DNA of 6,337 nt, from IMG/VR virus record IMGVR_UViG_2693429524_000012; one strand, given 5' to 3'. This document shows positions 1-6,337 of this stretch, one piece after another. The notes beneath the pieces were generated by a model that saw only the letters and a program-made list of their open reading frames with translations, was not told where the DNA came from and searched no databases. The stretch's first letter is position 1. Each line of letters begins with the position of its first letter. The position numbers were made by a program, and so were the translations under genes. The DNA comes from a virus (taxonomy: Duplodnaviria > Heunggongvirae > Uroviricota > Caudoviricetes).

Positions 1-70
1 CCTGACTTTCCAGAACCATACGAATCGCCCGCTGACGGACTTCGGGGGAAAAACGAGTATTTTTAGTCAT
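1..70 (-). CDS. IS3-family transposase OrfA, N-terminal 23 codons (partial, runs off window)
   Basis: Complement of 1..70 translates MTKNTRFSPEVRQRAIRMVLESQ, with ATG at complement 68..70 and AAAGAGG 8 nt upstream. The N-terminus matches my recollection of IS629-group OrfA. Confidence 0.8.
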   Translation of the reverse strand, partial: MTKNTRFSPEVRQRAIRMVLESQ

Positions 71-124
71 CCTGTTTACCTCTTTCTCAGGGAGTTTAGT
101 CTCCAGGATTTCCGGGGCGGTTCA
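1..124 (-). mobile_element. IS3-family insertion sequence (IS629/IS1203/IS3411-like), left end; element continues beyond the window start
   Basis: Reverse complement of 71..124 reads TGAACCGCCCCGGAAATCCTGGAGACTAAACTCCCTGAGAAAGAGGTAAACAGG, a typical IS3-group terminal inverted repeat (5'-TG...), followed by a GAGG ribosome-binding site and the orfA start. Shares TGAACCGCCCCGG...TCCTGGAGA with the IS end at 6227. Family name is from memory of IS629 termini. Confidence 0.8.
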
Positions 125-139
125 CCGCGAGGAATCAGT

Positions 140-358
140 ATGCAGAAACGAGAACCCGTCATCATCGCGCCAGACTATACCGATGATGAACTTTATGAGT
201 GGATGCGCCAGAAAATTAATGCAGCGCAGGATCTGAAATGGGCCAATGAAGCCAGGGCTAAGCAGGCTGAAAATCTGTCCGCTCTGGAGCAGGATATCAC
301 TAATCTGGAAAAAGCAGCGACATTAAGCATTGCCAGAATGATTACATACCCGCGTTAA
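140..358 (+). CDS. ydfC: Small prophage early-left protein, 72 aa, YdfC-like by length and synteny
   Basis: ATG at 140 with GAGGA (129..133) 6 nt upstream; 72-aa ORF immediately upstream of the spacer and dicF, as in the Qin ydfABC-dicF-dicB-ydfD arrangement. The symbol rests on synteny and length (K-12 YdfC is 72 aa), not on a verified alignment. Confidence 0.6.
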   Translation: MQKREPVIIAPDYTDDELYEWMRQKINAAQDLKWANEARAKQAENLSALEQDITNLEKAATLSIARMITYPR

Positions 359-699
359 TAGCTAACCAACGAAGCTAAGGTTGGTAATTAAGGAGTTCTC
401 CACGGATGAGGTGGAGTGCGTGCGCCGGACACGGGTGAGCATCCGGCACTGACAGTTTACTGAAAGGATATTTCCCTGAAAAGTCAGACCATAACGCGAA
501 AGCGCACGGCGAGGTAGCTGGTTCATAGATAGCCTGTCGTTAAATTTTCGTCGACCGTGCGCTTCCGGTTGTGGCAATCCGCGAAATGGCGCGGCGGTAA
601 GTATGGCGGGGTTATTCCTTCCCCCGTTGAGGACACCGGGTTGTCAGGTTGACCATACGCTTAAGTGACAACCCCGCTGCAACGCCCTCTGTTATCAAT

Positions 700-752
700 T
701 TTCTGGTGACGTTTGGCGGTATCAGTTTTACTCCGTGACTGCTCTGCCGCCC
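700..752 (+). ncRNA. dicF: DicF small regulatory RNA (ftsZ translation inhibitor)
   Basis: Sequence TTTCTGGTGACGTTTGGCGGTATCAGTTTTACTCCGTGACTGCTCTGCCGCCC followed by TTTTT (753..757) matches the 53-nt DicF sequence as I recall it. GC-rich stem (GGCGG...CCGCC) plus U-run gives a terminator-like 3' end. It lies between the ydfC-like ORF and dicB, as in Qin. Confidence 0.85.
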
Positions 753-926
753 TTTTTAAAGTGAATTTTGTGATGTGGTGAATGCGGCTGAGCGCACGCG
801 GAACAGTTAAAACCAAAAACAGTGTTATGGGTGGATTCTCTGTATCCGGCGTTAATTGTTAACTGGTTAACGTCACCTGGAGGCACCAGGCACTGCATCA
901 CAAAATTCATTGTTGAGGACGCGATA

Positions 927-1115
927 ATGAAAACGTTATTACCAAACGTTAATACGTCTGAAGGTTGTTTTGAAATTGGTGTCACTATCAGTAACCCAGT
1001 ATTTACTGAAGATGCCATTAACAAGAGAAAACAAGAACGGGAGCTATTAAATAAAATATGCATTGTTTCAATGCTGGCTCGTTTACGTCTGATGCCAAAA
1101 GGATGTGCACAATGA
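927..1115 (+). CDS. dicB: Cell-division inhibitor DicB (62 aa)
   Basis: ATG at 927 with GAGGA (915..919) 7 nt upstream. The 62-aa product MKTLLPNVNTSEGCFEIGVTISNPVFTEDAINKRKQERELLNKICIVSMLARLRLMPKGCAQ matches DicB in length and, from memory, in sequence; it lies directly downstream of dicF. The 97-aa ORF-track version (822..1115) is an in-frame upstream extension without an RBS. Confidence 0.85.
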   Translation: MKTLLPNVNTSEGCFEIGVTISNPVFTEDAINKRKQERELLNKICIVSMLARLRLMPKGCAQ

Positions 1116-1303
1116 ATTCAGCATTTGTGCTTGTTCTGACAGTTTTTCTTGTTTCCGGAGAGCCAGTTGATATTGCAGTCAGTGTTCACAGGACAATGCA
1201 GTAGTGTATGACTGCAGCAACCGAACAGAAAATTCCCGGTAACTGTTACCCGGTCGATAAAGTTATTCACCAGGATAATATCGAAATCCCGGCAGGTCTT
1301 TAA
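1112..1303 (+). pseudogene. ydfD: ydfD-like lysis-protein gene interrupted by an in-frame amber codon (TAG at 1202..1204)
   Basis: ATG at 1112 overlaps the dicB stop (ATGA). The frame reads MNSAFVLVLTVFLVSGEPVDIAVSVHRTMQ, then TAG, then CMTAATEQKIPGNCYPVDKVIHQDNIEIPAGL and TAA at 1301..1303. A sense codon at the TAG would give 63 aa, the length of K-12 YdfD. The N-terminal 30 aa are hydrophobic and membrane-anchor-like. Confidence 0.6.
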
Positions 1304-1395
1304 AACAGTTCCGTAATAAATATCCGGTTTCATTCTTATATGCCAGCAATGGCAGGGATTTGTTCATCCTTAAATCTGTCATGAGGTTAAAACAA

Positions 1396-3867
1396 ATGAG
1401 TAAAGTCTTTATTTGCGCCGCTATTCCTGACGAACTGGCAACAAGGGAAGAAGGCGCTGTGGCTGTAGCCACAGCCATTGAAGCTGGCGACGAACGCCGT
1501 GCTCGAGCAAAATTTCACTGGCAATTCCTGGAACATTATCCGGCTGCTCAGGACTGCGCTTATAAATTTCTTGTCTGCGAGGATAAACCCGGTATACCCC
1601 GCCCTGCCCTCGATTCCTGGGATGCTGAATATATGCAGGAAAACCGCTGGGATGAGGCGTCTGCTTCCTTTGTCCCGGTTGAGACTGAATCAGATCCGAT
1701 GAACGTCACTTTTGACAAGCTGGCCCCTGAAGTACAGAACGCTGTCATGGTTAAGTTCGACACATGTGAAAACATCACCGTTGATATGGTGATTAGTGCG
1801 CAGGAACTGTTGCAGGAAGACATGGCAACATTCGACGGACATATCGTTGAAGCGTTGATGAAAATGCCAGAAGTTAACGCCATGTATCCGGAGCTTAAGC
1901 TGCATGCCATCAGGTGGGTTAAGCATAAATGTAAGCCTGGTGCCAAATGGCCCGAAATTCAGGCAGAGATGCGCATCTGGAAAAAACGTCGCGAAGGTGA
2001 ACGCAAGGAAACCGGAAAATACACGTCTGTTGTTGATCTCGCCCGCGCCAGAGCCAATCAACAGTACACTGAAAATTCAACAAGAAAAATCAGCCCGGTC
2101 ATTGCTGCCATTCATCGCGAATACAAGCAGACATGGAAAACACTGGATGACGAACTGGCCTACGCTCTCTGGCCTGGTGATGTGGATGCCGGAAACATTG
2201 ACGGCAGCATCCATCGCTGGGCAAAAAATGAAGTTATCGACAACGACCGCGAAGACTGGAAGCGTATCTCGGCATCAATGCGCAAACAGCCTGATGCCCT
2301 TCGCTACGACCGCCAGACTATTTTTGGCCTTGTCCGTGAACGTCCGATCGACATTCACAAAGACCCTGTGGCACTGAACAAATACATTACTGAATACCTG
2401 ACTACAAAGGGCGTGTTTGAAGATGAAGGAACAAATCAGAGCACAACTGATACTCTCTCGTCGCCAGTACCAGAAACTGATGCAGTGGAAACGGCAATTC
2501 CGGACAACGAAAAAACCGAATGCAAAGTGGAAATCGAACCATCTGTAGAGCGTGAGGGGCCGTTCTACTTCCTCTTCACCGACAAGGATGGCGAAAAATA
2601 CGGTCGCGCAAACAAACTTTCTGGTCTGAATAAGGCGCTGACTGCAGGGGCTACTGAAATCACGAAAGAAGAATATTTTGCCCGCAAAAACGGTACATAC
2701 TCAGGTTCACAACAAAATACTGGTGCATCTGACACGACCGCACAACCAGAGCCGGTAAAAGTTACCGCTGAAGAAGTAAACAAAATTATGCAGGCAGCCA
2801 ATATCAGCCAGCCTGACGCCGATAAGTTGCTTGCTGCCTCTCGCGGAGAATTTGTTGCAGGGATTAGCGACCCGAATGATCCGCAATGGGTGAAGGGGAT
2901 TGAAACCCGCGACTCTGCAAACCAGAACCAGCAAGAATCGGAACAGAACGACCAGAAAACGGAACAAAACAGCCCAAATGCGCAACAAAACGAGCCAGAA
3001 ACGAAACAGGTTGAACCAGTAGCGCAACAGGAGCCGGAAAAAGTCTGCACCGCCTGCGGTCAGACCGGCGGCGGCAACTGCCCTGATTGTGGCGCGGTGA
3101 TGGGCGACGCAACATACCAGGAAACATTCGATGAAGAGTATCAGGTTGAAGTTCAGGAAGATGATCCGGAGAAAATGGAAGGCGCTGAACATCCACACAA
3201 GGAGAACACTGGCGGCAATCAGCATCACGATAGCGATAATGAAACTGGCGAGACGGCAGATCACTCAATTAAGGTGAACGGTCATCACGAAATCACATCC
3301 ACCAGCAGGACGTGTGACCATCTAATGATCGACCTTGAAACCATGGGAAAAAATCCTGATGCCCCGATCATCTCAATAGGTGCAATATTTTTCGATCCGC
3401 AAACCGGAGATATGGGACCGGAATTTAGTAAGACTATCGATCTGGAAACTGCTGGCGGAGTCATTGATCGGGACACCATTAAATGGTGGCTTAAGCAATC
3501 ACGCGAAGCGCAATCTGCCATTATGACCGATGAAATCCCGTTAGATGATGCACTGTTACAATTGCGGGAATTTATCGACGAAAACTCCGGTGAATTTTTT
3601 GTTCAGGTCTGGGGAAATGGAGCCAACTTCGACAACACGATTTTGCGCCGTTCATACGAACGGCAGGGGATCCCCTGCCCGTGGCGTTACTACAACGATC
3701 GCGATGTACGCACAATCGTTGAGCTGGGGAAAGCCATAGACTTCGATGCCAGAACGGCTATTCCATTCGAAGGTGAGCGCCATAATGCACTTGATGACGC
3801 CCGTTACCAGGCAAAATACGTTTCAGTTATCTGGCAAAAACTGATCCCGAGTCAGGCTGATTTTTAA
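1396..3867 (+). CDS. Large prophage early-left protein (~823 aa): uncharacterised N-terminal region, Q/N/E-rich linker, CxxC-x7-CxxC zinc ribbon, C-terminal DEDDh (DnaQ/RNase T-like) 3'-5' exonuclease domain
   Basis: Long uninterrupted ORF; preferred start ATG 1396 (GAGG at 1384..1387, 8-nt spacer); alternatives are ATG 1381 and TTG 1360 (ORF-track start). DEDDh motifs are visible: Exo I MIDLETMG (3325..3348), Exo II WGNGANFDNT (3610..3639), Exo III HNALDDARYQ (3781..3810). Zinc ribbon CTACGQTGGGNCPDC at 3046..3090. It occupies the position of ydfE in Qin (truncated by IS2 in K-12) and of exo/recE in lambdoid phages. Confidence 0.85.
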   Translation: MSKVFICAAIPDELATREEGAVAVATAIEAGDERRARAKFHWQFLEHYPAAQDCAYKFLVCEDKPGIPRPALDSWDAEYMQENRWDEASASFVPVETESDPMNVTFDKLAPEVQNAVMVKFDTCENITVDMVISAQELLQEDMATFDGHIVEALMKMPEVNAMYPELKLHAIRWVKHKCKPGAKWPEIQAEMRIWKKRREGERKETGKYTSVVDLARARANQQYTENSTRKISPVIAAIHREYKQTWKTLDDELAYALWPGDVDAGNIDGSIHRWAKNEVIDNDREDWKRISASMRKQPDALRYDRQTIFGLVRERPIDIHKDPVALNKYITEYLTTKGVFEDEGTNQSTTDTLSSPVPETDAVETAIPDNEKTECKVEIEPSVEREGPFYFLFTDKDGEKYGRANKLSGLNKALTAGATEITKEEYFARKNGTYSGSQQNTGASDTTAQPEPVKVTAEEVNKIMQAANISQPDADKLLAASRGEFVAGISDPNDPQWVKGIETRDSANQNQQESEQNDQKTEQNSPNAQQNEPETKQVEPVAQQEPEKVCTACGQTGGGNCPDCGAVMGDATYQETFDEEYQVEVQEDDPEKMEGAEHPHKENTGGNQHHDSDNETGETADHSIKVNGHHEITSTSRTCDHLMIDLETMGKNPDAPIISIGAIFFDPQTGDMGPEFSKTIDLETAGGVIDRDTIKWWLKQSREAQSAIMTDEIPLDDALLQLREFIDENSGEFFVQVWGNGANFDNTILRRSYERQGIPCPWRYYNDRDVRTIVELGKAIDFDARTAIPFEGERHNALDDARYQAKYVSVIWQKLIPSQADF

Positions 3868-3925: not shown

Positions 3926-4129
3926 ATGAGCAACTTATTTTTAACCGAAGATGAATTGCTAATATTAACGGGCTGCAAATATGCAAGCCACCAGCGAAAA
4001 TGGTTAACGGAAAACGGGCTTCCGTTCTATACCAATCGTAGTGGCAAACCGATTGTCAGCCGGGATCTATTTACCTGCAATAAAACTTTACCACCACGCG
4101 AGGTAGAGCCGAATTTTGGTGCAATCTAA
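3926..4129 (+). CDS. xis: Excisionase-like small DNA-binding protein (DUF4224-type Xis), 67 aa
   Basis: 67-aa ORF directly upstream of int and translationally coupled to it (TAATG overlap at 4127..4131). The N-terminus MSNLFLTEDELLILTGCKYASHQRKWLTENGLPFY resembles the small helix-turn-helix proteins usually found upstream of lambdoid integrases. Function is inferred from position and general resemblance. Confidence 0.7.
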   Translation: MSNLFLTEDELLILTGCKYASHQRKWLTENGLPFYTNRSGKPIVSRDLFTCNKTLPPREVEPNFGAI

Positions 4130-5154
4130 TGGGAAGACGAAGGAAAAATCCTGAACACGAAAAACTACCTCCAAATGTATACCCAAATAAATATAGTTAT
4201 GTATGGAAACCAACATCCAGAGAATCTGTCACACTAACCGCCATCAAGGATGGTTTAGCTGCTTTATGGAAAAAGTATGAGGAAACTGTAAATAATCGCG
4301 ATCGTGCAATGACATTCGGTCGCTTGTGGGAAAAATTCCTCGCCAGCGCCTATTACAGTGACCTCAGTCCAAGAACACAAAAAGATTATCTGCAACATCA
4401 AAAAAAGTTGCTTGCCGTATTCGGTAAGGTGCCGGCAGATTCCATAAAACCAGAACACATCCGTCGATACATGGACAAGAGAGGGGAACAGAGTAAAACG
4501 CAAGCCAACCATGAAAAAAGCAGTATGTCCCGCGTTTACAGTTGGGGGTATGAGCGAGGGTACGTGAAGGCTAACCCATGTGCAGGTGTAAGTAAATTCA
4601 AGGCCAAAAACCGCGAACGATATGTAACCGACAAAGAATACCAGGCAGTATTAAGCGTTGCACCTCTTCCTGTTTTTATCGCAATGGAAATTGCCTATCT
4701 GTGTGCAGCGAGGGTTTCCGATGTGTTATCGCTGAAATGGGAGCAGATTGGAAACGACGGAATCTTTATCCAGCAAGGGAAAACAGGAAAAAAACAGATA
4801 AAAGCATGGAGTCCACGATTACAGGCGGCGATCGAAAAAGCAAAACAGTTACCAACATCCGCCTATGTAATCAGTAATCAATACGGCAACCGATATATGT
4901 ACAAAGGCTTTAACGAAATGTGGGTAGAAGCAAGAAATCGCGCAGGCAAAATTTCAGGTATTTTAACCGACTTCACCTTTCATGATCTGAAGGCGAAAGG
5001 AATTTCAGACTATGAAGGAAGCAGTCGGGATAAGCAACTTTTCTCTGGTCACAAAACCGAGGGGCAAGTGCTAATCTATGACAGGAAGGTTAAAGTTTCA
5101 CCGACACTTGATGTCCCGTTACCTGAAAATATTCCAAGAAAATATTCCAAGTAA
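4129..5154 (+). CDS. int: Phage integrase, tyrosine recombinase of the lambda Int family (341 aa); Lys found where catalytic Arg II is expected
   Basis: By-eye alignment with lambda Int catalytic regions: AARVSDVLSLKWEQI (Arg I), QQGKTGKK (Lys), FHDLKAKG (His present, Lys at 4990..4992 where HxLR Arg is expected), GHKTEG (His), LIYDRK (Tyr). The gene ends 49 bp from the 3' end of serU. Confidence 0.9.
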   Translation: MGRRRKNPEHEKLPPNVYPNKYSYVWKPTSRESVTLTAIKDGLAALWKKYEETVNNRDRAMTFGRLWEKFLASAYYSDLSPRTQKDYLQHQKKLLAVFGKVPADSIKPEHIRRYMDKRGEQSKTQANHEKSSMSRVYSWGYERGYVKANPCAGVSKFKAKNRERYVTDKEYQAVLSVAPLPVFIAMEIAYLCAARVSDVLSLKWEQIGNDGIFIQQGKTGKKQIKAWSPRLQAAIEKAKQLPTSAYVISNQYGNRYMYKGFNEMWVEARNRAGKISGILTDFTFHDLKAKGISDYEGSSRDKQLFSGHKTEGQVLIYDRKVKVSPTLDVPLPENIPRKYSK

Positions 5155-5203: not shown

Positions 5204-5293
5204 TTTTGGCGGAGAGAGGGGGATTTGAACCCCCGGTGGAGTTGCCCCCACTCCGGTTTTCGAGACCGGTCCGTTCAGCCGCTCCGGCATCTC
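5204..5293 (-). tRNA. serU: tRNA-Ser (anticodon CGA), 90 nt with long variable arm and encoded CCA
   Basis: Reverse complement is GGAGAGATGCCGGAGCGGCTGAACGGACCGGTCTCGAAAACCGGAGTGGGGGCAACTCCACCGGGGGTTCAAATCCCCCTCTCTCCGCCA. Seven-bp acceptor stem GGAGAGA/TCTCTCC, anticodon loop CUCGAAA (anticodon CGA), class II variable arm, T-loop GGTTCAAATCC. The symbol follows from the anticodon and the adjacent mtfA. Confidence 0.95.
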
Positions 5294-5389
5294 TCCGTTC
5301 AGATGGTTGCCATGATGCCAGGAAATTTGGCATTTTAACAGTCCCTGTCCGTGCAATTTTGTTCAAGTGACGAGTTTGCGAGCAAAACG

Positions 5390-6187
5390 ATGATTAAGTG
5401 GCCCTGGAAAGTACAAGAATCAGCACATCAAACTGCCCTTCCCTGGCAGGAAGCACTATCGATCCCCCTTTTAACGTGTCTGACGGAACAGGAACAAAGC
5501 AAATTAGTCACTCTTGCCGAACGTTTTTTACAGCAAAAGCGGCTTGTTCCTTTACAGGGCTTTGAACTGGATTCATTAAGAAGCTGCCGGATAGCACTTC
5601 TATTTTGCCTACCCGTTCTGGAGTTAGGACTGGAATGGCTGGATGGTTTTCATGAAGTCTTAATTTATCCTGCGCCATTTGTGGTCGATGATGAATGGGA
5701 AGACGATATCGGTCTGGTGCATAACCAACGTATTGTTCAGTCAGGTCAGAGCTGGCAGCAAGGGCCTATCGTTTTGAACTGGTTGGATATACAAGATTCT
5801 TTTGATGCTTCTGGTTTTAACCTGATTATTCATGAAGTCGCTCATAAGCTGGACACCCGTAACGGCGATCGCGCCAGCGGAGTTCCCTTTATTCCGTTGC
5901 GTGAGGTTGCTGGCTGGGAACACGATCTTCATGCTGCAATGAACAACATTCAGGAAGAAATCGAATTGGTTGGCGAGAATGCGGCGAGCATTGATGCTTA
6001 TGCTGCCAGTGATCCTGCTGAATGTTTTGCCGTACTTTCTGAATATTTCTTTAGCGCCCCAGAACTTTTTGCTCCTCGTTTCCCTTCATTGTGGCAACGT
6101 TTCTGCCAATTTTATCAACAAGATCCTTTGCAGAGACTGCATCGCACTAATGATACAGACTCGTTTTCGGCGACGAATGTTCATTAA
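5390..6187 (+). CDS. mtfA: MtfA (Mlc titration factor A; zinc-dependent peptidase), 265 aa
   Basis: Product starts [28 protein letters not shown], contains the HEVAH zinc-binding motif, and is 265 aa, matching E. coli MtfA (YeeI). The ORF-track start at GTG 5351 is an in-frame upstream extension; ATG 5390 is the likely start. Confidence 0.95.
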
Positions 6188-6226: not shown

Positions 6227-6337
6227 TGAACCGCCCCGGGTTTCCTGGAGAGTGTTTTATCTGTGAACTCAGGCTGCCAGATCATCGTTTCCGATGGAAG
6301 CATAATAAGCTTTTTCTGCTTCTGCCGGAGGAGTATG
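6227..6337 (-). mobile_element. IS3-family insertion sequence (IS629-like), right end; element continues beyond the window end
   Basis: From 6227 the sequence reads TGAACCGCCCCGGGTTTCCTGGAGAGTGTTTTATCTGTGAACTC, an IS3-group terminal repeat related to the one at 71..124. The complementary strand encodes a transposase C-terminus. Same orientation as the copy at the window start. Confidence 0.8.
6269..6337 (-). CDS. IS3-family transposase OrfB, C-terminal fragment (partial; frame chosen by motif)
   Basis: Complement of 6272..6337 translates HTPPAEAEKAYYASIGNDDLAA followed by TGA (complement 6269..6271). The TP-x-E-x-E-K-x-YY pattern resembles the C-terminal tail of DDE transposases. A second frame is also open here, so the frame is uncertain. 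Confidence 0.45.
   Translation of the reverse strand, partial: HTPPAEAEKAYYASIGNDDLAA

Follow-up and report, generated by a model that had tools for sequence, protein, structure and literature searches.

DicF and DicB are inhibitors of cell division that also change metabolism and protect against some phages, and in enterohaemorrhagic Escherichia coli (EHEC) they promote virulence-gene expression; the four dicF copies of EHEC are the subject of a 2019 paper by Melson and Kendall. IS629 (also called IS1203 or IS1203v) is an element of the IS3 family that is abundant in Shiga-toxin-producing E. coli and Shigella and is highly active in prophage regions. The classical polar insertions are those of IS1, IS2 and IS3 in gal and lac, which act via Rho-dependent termination in the untranslated RNA of the insert; Rho typically acts on long RNA that is untranslated and rich in C.

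In the Qin prophage of E. coli K-12, the dicBF transcript starts at dicBp, a DicA-repressed promoter located upstream of ydfA (PMC10448788), on which 2 other studies agree (PMC5069750, PMC9438474). dicBp is the only promoter that was found for DicF in K-12, no further one being detected, and DicF is released from the dicBp transcript by RNase III/E processing (PMC10448788). Genomic SELEX is reported to place an in vitro binding site for RNA polymerase in the interval from dicF to dicB (PMC3946193). As for the insertion element, IS1203v is a synonym of IS629, the outward −35 element of the IS3 family is located in the right inverted repeat (IRR), and IS629 yields adjacent deletions with the excision enhancer IEE (PMC9330008).

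Here, we describe a prophage locus in which the distal part of such an operon directly follows an IS629 end. The window, that is, the whole stretch of DNA that was analysed, is the entire 6337-bp contig CYFD01000113.1 of the short-read draft assembly GCA_001284405.1, and the source genome is evidently rich in insertion sequences. This IS load first pointed to Shigella, a source that was dropped because the protein records carry the label Escherichia coli. The contig stops inside IS629 at its left and right ends alike; repeats are where short-read contigs typically break off. The other flank of the left IS is out of view because the contig ends within this repeated element. The reading that we prefer, with a probability of about 0.6, is that a simple IS629 insertion is polar on ydfC-dicF-dicB and has uncoupled these genes from the DicA/DicC/Rem switch. 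The features of the window are as follows.

1–124, minus strand: left (5′, IRL) end of an IS629/IS1203 copy, IS3 family; 124/124 match to the L004 element
68–70, minus strand: orfA start codon (as reverse complement); the first 23 orfA codons run off the contig start
71–99, minus strand: transposase leader
about 100–124, minus strand: IRL terminal inverted repeat, matching complete IS629 copies
125–139, plus strand: residual 15 nt of the 29-nt ydfB-ydfC spacer, CCGCGAGGAATCAGT, identical to IS-free relatives and K-12
140–358, plus strand: ydfC, 72 aa; 71/72 against K-12 YdfC (A61T)
701–753, plus strand: dicF small RNA with terminator hairpin and T-run; Rfam RF00039, 53/53 against K-12 dicF
927–1115, plus strand: dicB, 62 aa, cell-division inhibitor; 62/62 against K-12 DicB, Pfam PF05358 on record
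1112–1303, plus strand: ydfD with a premature stop, 30-aa product; codon 31 GAG>TAG at 1202–1204 (E31*)
1396–3867, plus strand: YdfE-type 3′-5′ exonuclease, 823 aa, intact; Pfam YdfE_N, YdfE_C and Rv2179c-like on record, exonuclease in relatives
3926–4129, plus strand: DUF4224 excisionase-like gene
4129–5154, plus strand: tyrosine integrase, 341 aa, intact
5207–5296, minus strand: tRNA-Ser (CGA), prophage attachment site (ARAGORN and Rfam)
5390–6187, plus strand: host gene mtfA, by annotation of relatives
6227–6337, minus strand (same strand as the first IS): right (IRR) end of a second IS629; 110/111 against the first 111 nt of the L004 element, plus-strand reading

The IS629 end abuts the ydfC leader

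On the minus strand, bases 1–124 of the window match the final 124 nt of a full-length IS3-family element of 1310 bp (5815–7124 of L004, from E. coli HCM-22C-2); in RefSeq, such full elements bear the label IS3 family / IS1203 family transposase, programmed frameshift. L004 and L005 carry copies whose ends are identical; these measure 1310 bp and have the frameshift annotated, and the window itself shows the first 23 orfA codons. The terminal inverted repeats begin TGAACCGCCCCGG..., with IRL at 100–124 (reverse complement) and IRR, from the second copy, at 6227–6251. The IS terminal ...CCGGGGCGGTTCA finishes at base 124 and the ydfC ATG is located at 140, which bears out to the base the initial annotation that an IS end lies 15 bp upstream of this start codon. 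The orientation that it gave, with the promoter of the IS pointing away from the operon, is likewise correct: the orfA ATG is the reverse complement of 68–70, and the transposase therefore reads away from ydfC. The designation “ydfC-like” understated the identity, as the gene is a true ydfC with 71 of 72 residues shared with K-12 YdfC, and ydfC is the annotation in genomes that are 100% identical over window 123–420.

The Shine-Dalgarno sequence of ydfC (GAGG, 129–132) is kept between the IS tip and the ATG. The alignment of the IS-free relatives and K-12 Qin begins at window 123, and bases 123–124 (CA) are common to the IS tip and the target by chance. In the IS-free locus L001, the breakpoint falls 14 nt past the end of ydfB and 15 nt before the start of ydfC, inside the 29-nt spacer. 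The IS-ydfC join is not a chance one, because the IS piece matches thousands of IS629/IS1203 copies and the junction falls at the exact terminal base of the element.

The identical junction was found in 0 of 5,426 complete E. coli genomes (BLAST of window 1–420). Exact-pattern scans returned no match to the left or the right junction in the genome contig collection, to the observed or the predicted junction in viral contigs, or to the junction in metagenome contigs. Relative to these 5,426 complete genomes the exact insertion site is new, but it only adds a further case to a familiar class: polar-type IS insertions in prophage operons are textbook events, and no new mechanism is involved.

The distal dicBF operon is retained

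The order ydfC-dicF-dicB-ydfD is kept, with DicF (RF00039; 76.7 bits against a gathering score of 48, E 3.6e-16) upstream of dicB (PF05358), as in a Qin-type operon. Comparison with K-12 thus agrees with the initial annotation, which had read the region downstream of the IS as the distal part of that operon, ydfC-dicF-dicB-ydfD′, and had placed the DicA-repressed promoter that drives the Qin operon upstream of ydfA, in line with the K-12 work (PMC10448788). dicBp, ydfA and ydfB are missing from the window, and IS629 stands at their position; the missing promoter-proximal part is not evidence against the homology of the distal part. Of the 11 IS-free loci matched by the probe, 9 share the TAG of ydfD E31* (L001 has the annotation “internal stop”, and K-12 has GAG), so the premature stop predates the IS.

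Two further observations concern these genes. The E31* form of the lysis gene ydfD is a widespread inactivating allele. Opposite the ydfC-dicF spacer, on the minus strand, a 54-aa ORF (362–526) is listed among the predicted genes here and in several relatives; it has no Pfam family on record and may be a spurious call.

The prophage arm and the second IS629

The gene content of the remaining window (exonuclease, excisionase-like gene, integrase, tRNA-Ser(CGA), and mtfA) identifies the region as the left arm of a Qin-like lambdoid prophage located at serU/mtfA and not at the Qin site. An exact-protein look-up of the YdfE-type exonuclease returned the window's own contig only, present in 2 samples. 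The integrase is intact in the window, and its orthologue is annotated as frameshifted in the close relatives L001 and L002.

Beginning 39 nt past the mtfA stop, the second IS629 is cut short by the end of the contig; the IS-free relatives stop aligning at 6227. In the relatives, this position is occupied by the spacer before tRNA-Asn (asnT). The outward direction of the IRR of this copy points antisense into mtfA. The 6.1-kb segment from ydfC through int-serU-mtfA is bracketed by direct IS629 copies, an arrangement that is composite-transposon-like and prone to deletion by recombination.

The ancestral state upstream of ydfC

In all 10 long-contig places with an identical YdfC, the genes immediately preceding it are a cro-like gene, a repressor gene, ydfA (DUF1391), and ydfB, and the spacer is the same; the exact-protein look-up of YdfC that revealed them returned IS-free long contigs only. 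Strain CD45, which carries a 99.2%-identical prophage at the same serU/mtfA site, has dicC, dicA, ydfA, and ydfB upstream. Judged by these sequence comparisons, dicC-dicA-ydfA-ydfB upstream of ydfC is the ancestral state.

IS629-type insertions in finished genomes

We compared the window with 7 IS629-type elements that lie close to ydfC/dicB in finished genomes of E. coli (HCM-22C-2, CEC13002, NCCP 13907, O157:H7 F8798, O111:H8 2009C-3675, OkiPb01684, and E300082), which were inspected at the base level. Six of the 7 are simple insertions with target duplications of 3–4 bp, and 1 is a deletion junction.

L004: IS in ydfC codon 5; duplication AAC
L005: IS in the ydfA-like gene; duplication CTA
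L019: IS in the ydfA-like gene; duplication GTA
L018: IS about 280 bp upstream of ydfC; duplication CTGG
L017: IS about 17 nt upstream of ydfC; duplication AAC/ACC, imperfect
L002: IS 5 nt upstream of dicB; duplication CGA
L020: paaK′-IS-′ydfC deletion junction; no duplication

A clean AAC duplication in L017 was considered and rejected, as the uninterrupted sequence of L018 shows AAC/ACC. The assignment of L017 (H29) to the same insertion site as that of the window was also rejected: it has a different spacer variant and the opposite orientation and is a separate event. In L020 (1391–2805, from strain E300082), what remains of a truncated paaK is connected through an IS3-family element to the 3′ half of ydfC; the deletion took out the entire immunity region together with ydfA and ydfB, as well as the 5′ half of ydfC, and left dicB, ydfD, and the exonuclease gene. 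In L002 (8803–10112, E. coli OkiPb01684), an IS629-type element lies in the direction of the operon with its IRR facing dicB, 5 nt from the ATG. This IRR could create a hybrid promoter for the toxic dicB.

In the genomes with simple insertions, the repressor, the promoter, and the upstream genes are intact 1.3 kb away where inspected. The initial annotation had held that everything upstream of ydfC was replaced by the IS; this is unsupported, given that the contig ends inside the IS and that 6 of 7 comparable events are simple insertions with target duplication. For the window, a simple insertion is the better bet over a deletion, by our estimate at roughly three to one, because 6 of the 7 comparable finished-genome events are of that type.

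According to this model, a full-length 1310-bp IS629 would have transposed into the 29-nt ydfB-ydfC spacer of a Qin-type prophage at tRNA-Ser(CGA)/mtfA of an E. coli strain, such that the transposase gene would be antisense to the operon and the IRL end would abut ydfC. The predicted target duplication is CCG (3 bp, 125–127), and the predicted other junction is ...GCGAAACAGCACCG / TGAACCGCCCCGGGTTTCC, that is to say, a simple insertion would give GGCTGATAAGCGAAACAGCACCG then TGAACCGCCCCGGGTTTCC at the ydfB side of IS629. dicC-dicA-dicBp-ydfA-ydfB would then remain about 1.3 kb upstream, on another contig.

Alternatively, as the initial annotation in essence held, the IS could mark a deletion or rearrangement junction at which dicA, dicC, dicBp, ydfA, and ydfB were lost, leaving the module fully orphaned and the prophage truncated at ydfC. 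The paaK′-IS-′ydfC junction of strain E300082, without target duplication, is an exact precedent, and adjacent deletions by IS629 with IEE are documented (PMC9330008). The 2 direct IS629 copies that bound the contig, 6.1 kb apart, are consistent with such an event, and the assembly breaks at both. However, the breakpoint lies in an intergenic spacer and leaves ydfC and its ribosome-binding site whole, no feature of the window specifically favours a deletion, and 6 of the 7 comparable events were simple insertions. We regard this alternative as the less likely one, though a live one; it could have come about by an IS629-mediated adjacent deletion, an IEE-promoted deletion, or IS-IS recombination.

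Transcription of DicF and DicB

The IS end that faces ydfC is IRL and not IRR. No plus-strand sigma-70-like site with a score of at least 9/12 was found in window 1–1400, and none with at least 8/12 was found upstream of dicF or starting in 1–170. The antisense strand of the full IS copy likewise yielded no sigma-70-like site toward the operon. Neither an outward IS3-family −35 element nor a complete outward promoter is evident beside ydfC.

On the antisense strand of the IS, no convincing intrinsic terminator was found; there is only a weak 5-bp hairpin in IRR, and the site count is not above that of shuffled sequence. Polarity would therefore act through a Rho mechanism, which we infer. The same strand has 29.8% C versus 24.0% G, with 80-nt windows of up to C/G 2.25, and most of its open stretches are shorter than 90 codons. 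Rho-dependent polarity in the antisense RNA is likely, because this strand is C-rich and without long ORFs.

Under the simple-insertion model, translation of ydfB on the dicBp transcripts would stop 14 nt short of the IS, and the transcripts would then cross 1310 nt of untranslated C-rich RNA antisense to the transposase gene, where Rho-dependent termination, together with collision with IS transcription, would stop most of them. The IRL end would supply no outward promoter to the operon. As a result, ydfC, DicF, dicB, and the genes beyond would be intact in sequence and largely uncoupled from the DicA/DicC/Rem switch. This uncoupling of DicF/DicB is likely under either structural scenario, insertion or deletion, because dicBp is the only DicF promoter found in K-12, IRL faces ydfC, no sigma-70-like site was found, and the antisense RNA is C-rich. 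On this point the initial annotation, which took the module to be probably transcriptionally orphaned, is plausible.

The only plus-strand sigma-70-like match of at least 8/12 between the IS and dicB is a weak one, GTGACT-16-TAAAGT (735–762, 8/12). It overlaps the DicF terminator and lies in the interval of polymerase binding by SELEX (PMC3946193). Judging from this site, dicB might still be transcribed to some extent on its own, though DicF would not.

It is distinctly unlikely, in our view, that the module escaped silencing, with read-through from dicBp or a cryptic or hybrid promoter making enough DicF and DicB that the insertion only dampens or re-tunes their expression. Such a reading draws on the lack of a detected strong intrinsic terminator on the IS antisense strand, on the polymerase binding between dicF and dicB (PMC3946193) with the weak match at 735–762, and on the fact that DicF and DicB are fully conserved, as are the processing region and the site of ribosome binding for ydfC. 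By contrast, no promoter-like site points toward the operon from the IS or from upstream of dicF, the K-12 experiments gave no additional DicF promoter (PMC10448788), IRL is not the IS3-family end with the outward −35 element, and a long untranslated C-rich RNA is the kind on which Rho typically acts; conservation is uninformative if the insertion is recent.

That the IS-ydfC junction is an assembly artefact, in which a chimeric IS629 read path was joined to the ydfC region of a short draft contig ending in repeats on both sides, is scarcely credible, as the join falls at the exact IS terminal base, as transposition predicts, the same contig and protein are present in 2 assemblies (the sister assembly carries protein CTZ64363.1), and analogous real insertions occur within 30 bp of the window site in finished genomes.

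Clustering of IS629-type insertions

Each of 3 independent insertions is no more than about 30 bp away from the start of ydfC (window, −15; CEC13002, about −17; HCM-22C-2, +13), and 3 more lie within about 35 bp of one another in the ydfA-like gene, roughly 300 bp upstream of ydfC. They occur in both orientations and in unrelated strains, and each is strain-specific. The clustered IS copies of the finished genomes are located at 5815–7124 of L004, 3716–5025 of L017, 5815–7124 of L005, 1391–2700 of L019, and 1391–2700 of L018. This is an incidental count, for which the BLAST queries set the ascertainment window. It is doubtful that IS629-type elements hit the leaders of dicBF-type operons non-randomly, be it through a sequence- or structure-directed hotspot or through repeated selection for uncoupling the toxic DicF/DicB; if selection were at work, the module would be cut from the prophage immunity switch with its genes kept intact.

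Implications and comparison with known systems

Whether DicF/DicB can be induced in a strain depends on the link to the DicA/DicC switch. The window strain is a natural example in which this link has probably been broken by an IS while the effector genes are intact, and finding dicF or dicB in a genome is no proof that they can be induced. The locus also adds one data point on how IS629 reshapes prophages.

Compared with complete 1310-bp IS629 copies, the window shows 124 nt and 111 nt of 2 copies, and both visible ends are identical or near-identical to those of the complete elements. The insertions in finished genomes involve the same element and the same operon leader, and 2 of them lie within 30 bp of the window site, at about −17 and +13 counted from the ydfC ATG. 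The insertion point differs in each, both orientations are represented, every one is specific to its strain, and, unlike in the window, both junctions can be read. As in the classical polar IS cases, the IS is located between promoter-proximal and distal genes, upstream translation stops before the insert, and the RNA of the insert is untranslated and C-rich. In the window, polarity is predicted from sequence, with the promoter presumed to lie beyond the IS.

The closest relative is the dicBF operon of K-12 Qin, to which window 123–2162 is 98.4% identical with the same gene order, the identity running from 17 nt upstream of ydfC to the IS2E cut in K-12 ydfE. Comparison between the 2 prophages revealed that (i) the window prophage is located at tRNA-Ser(CGA)/mtfA, whereas K-12 Qin is near ynfA/rspA; (ii) the window, unlike K-12 Qin, has an intact 823-aa exonuclease, an excisionase-like gene, and an integrase; (iii) its ydfD carries E31*; and (iv) the dicBp-ydfA-ydfB part, which is continuous with the distal genes in K-12 Qin, is split off by IS629 and lies outside the window.
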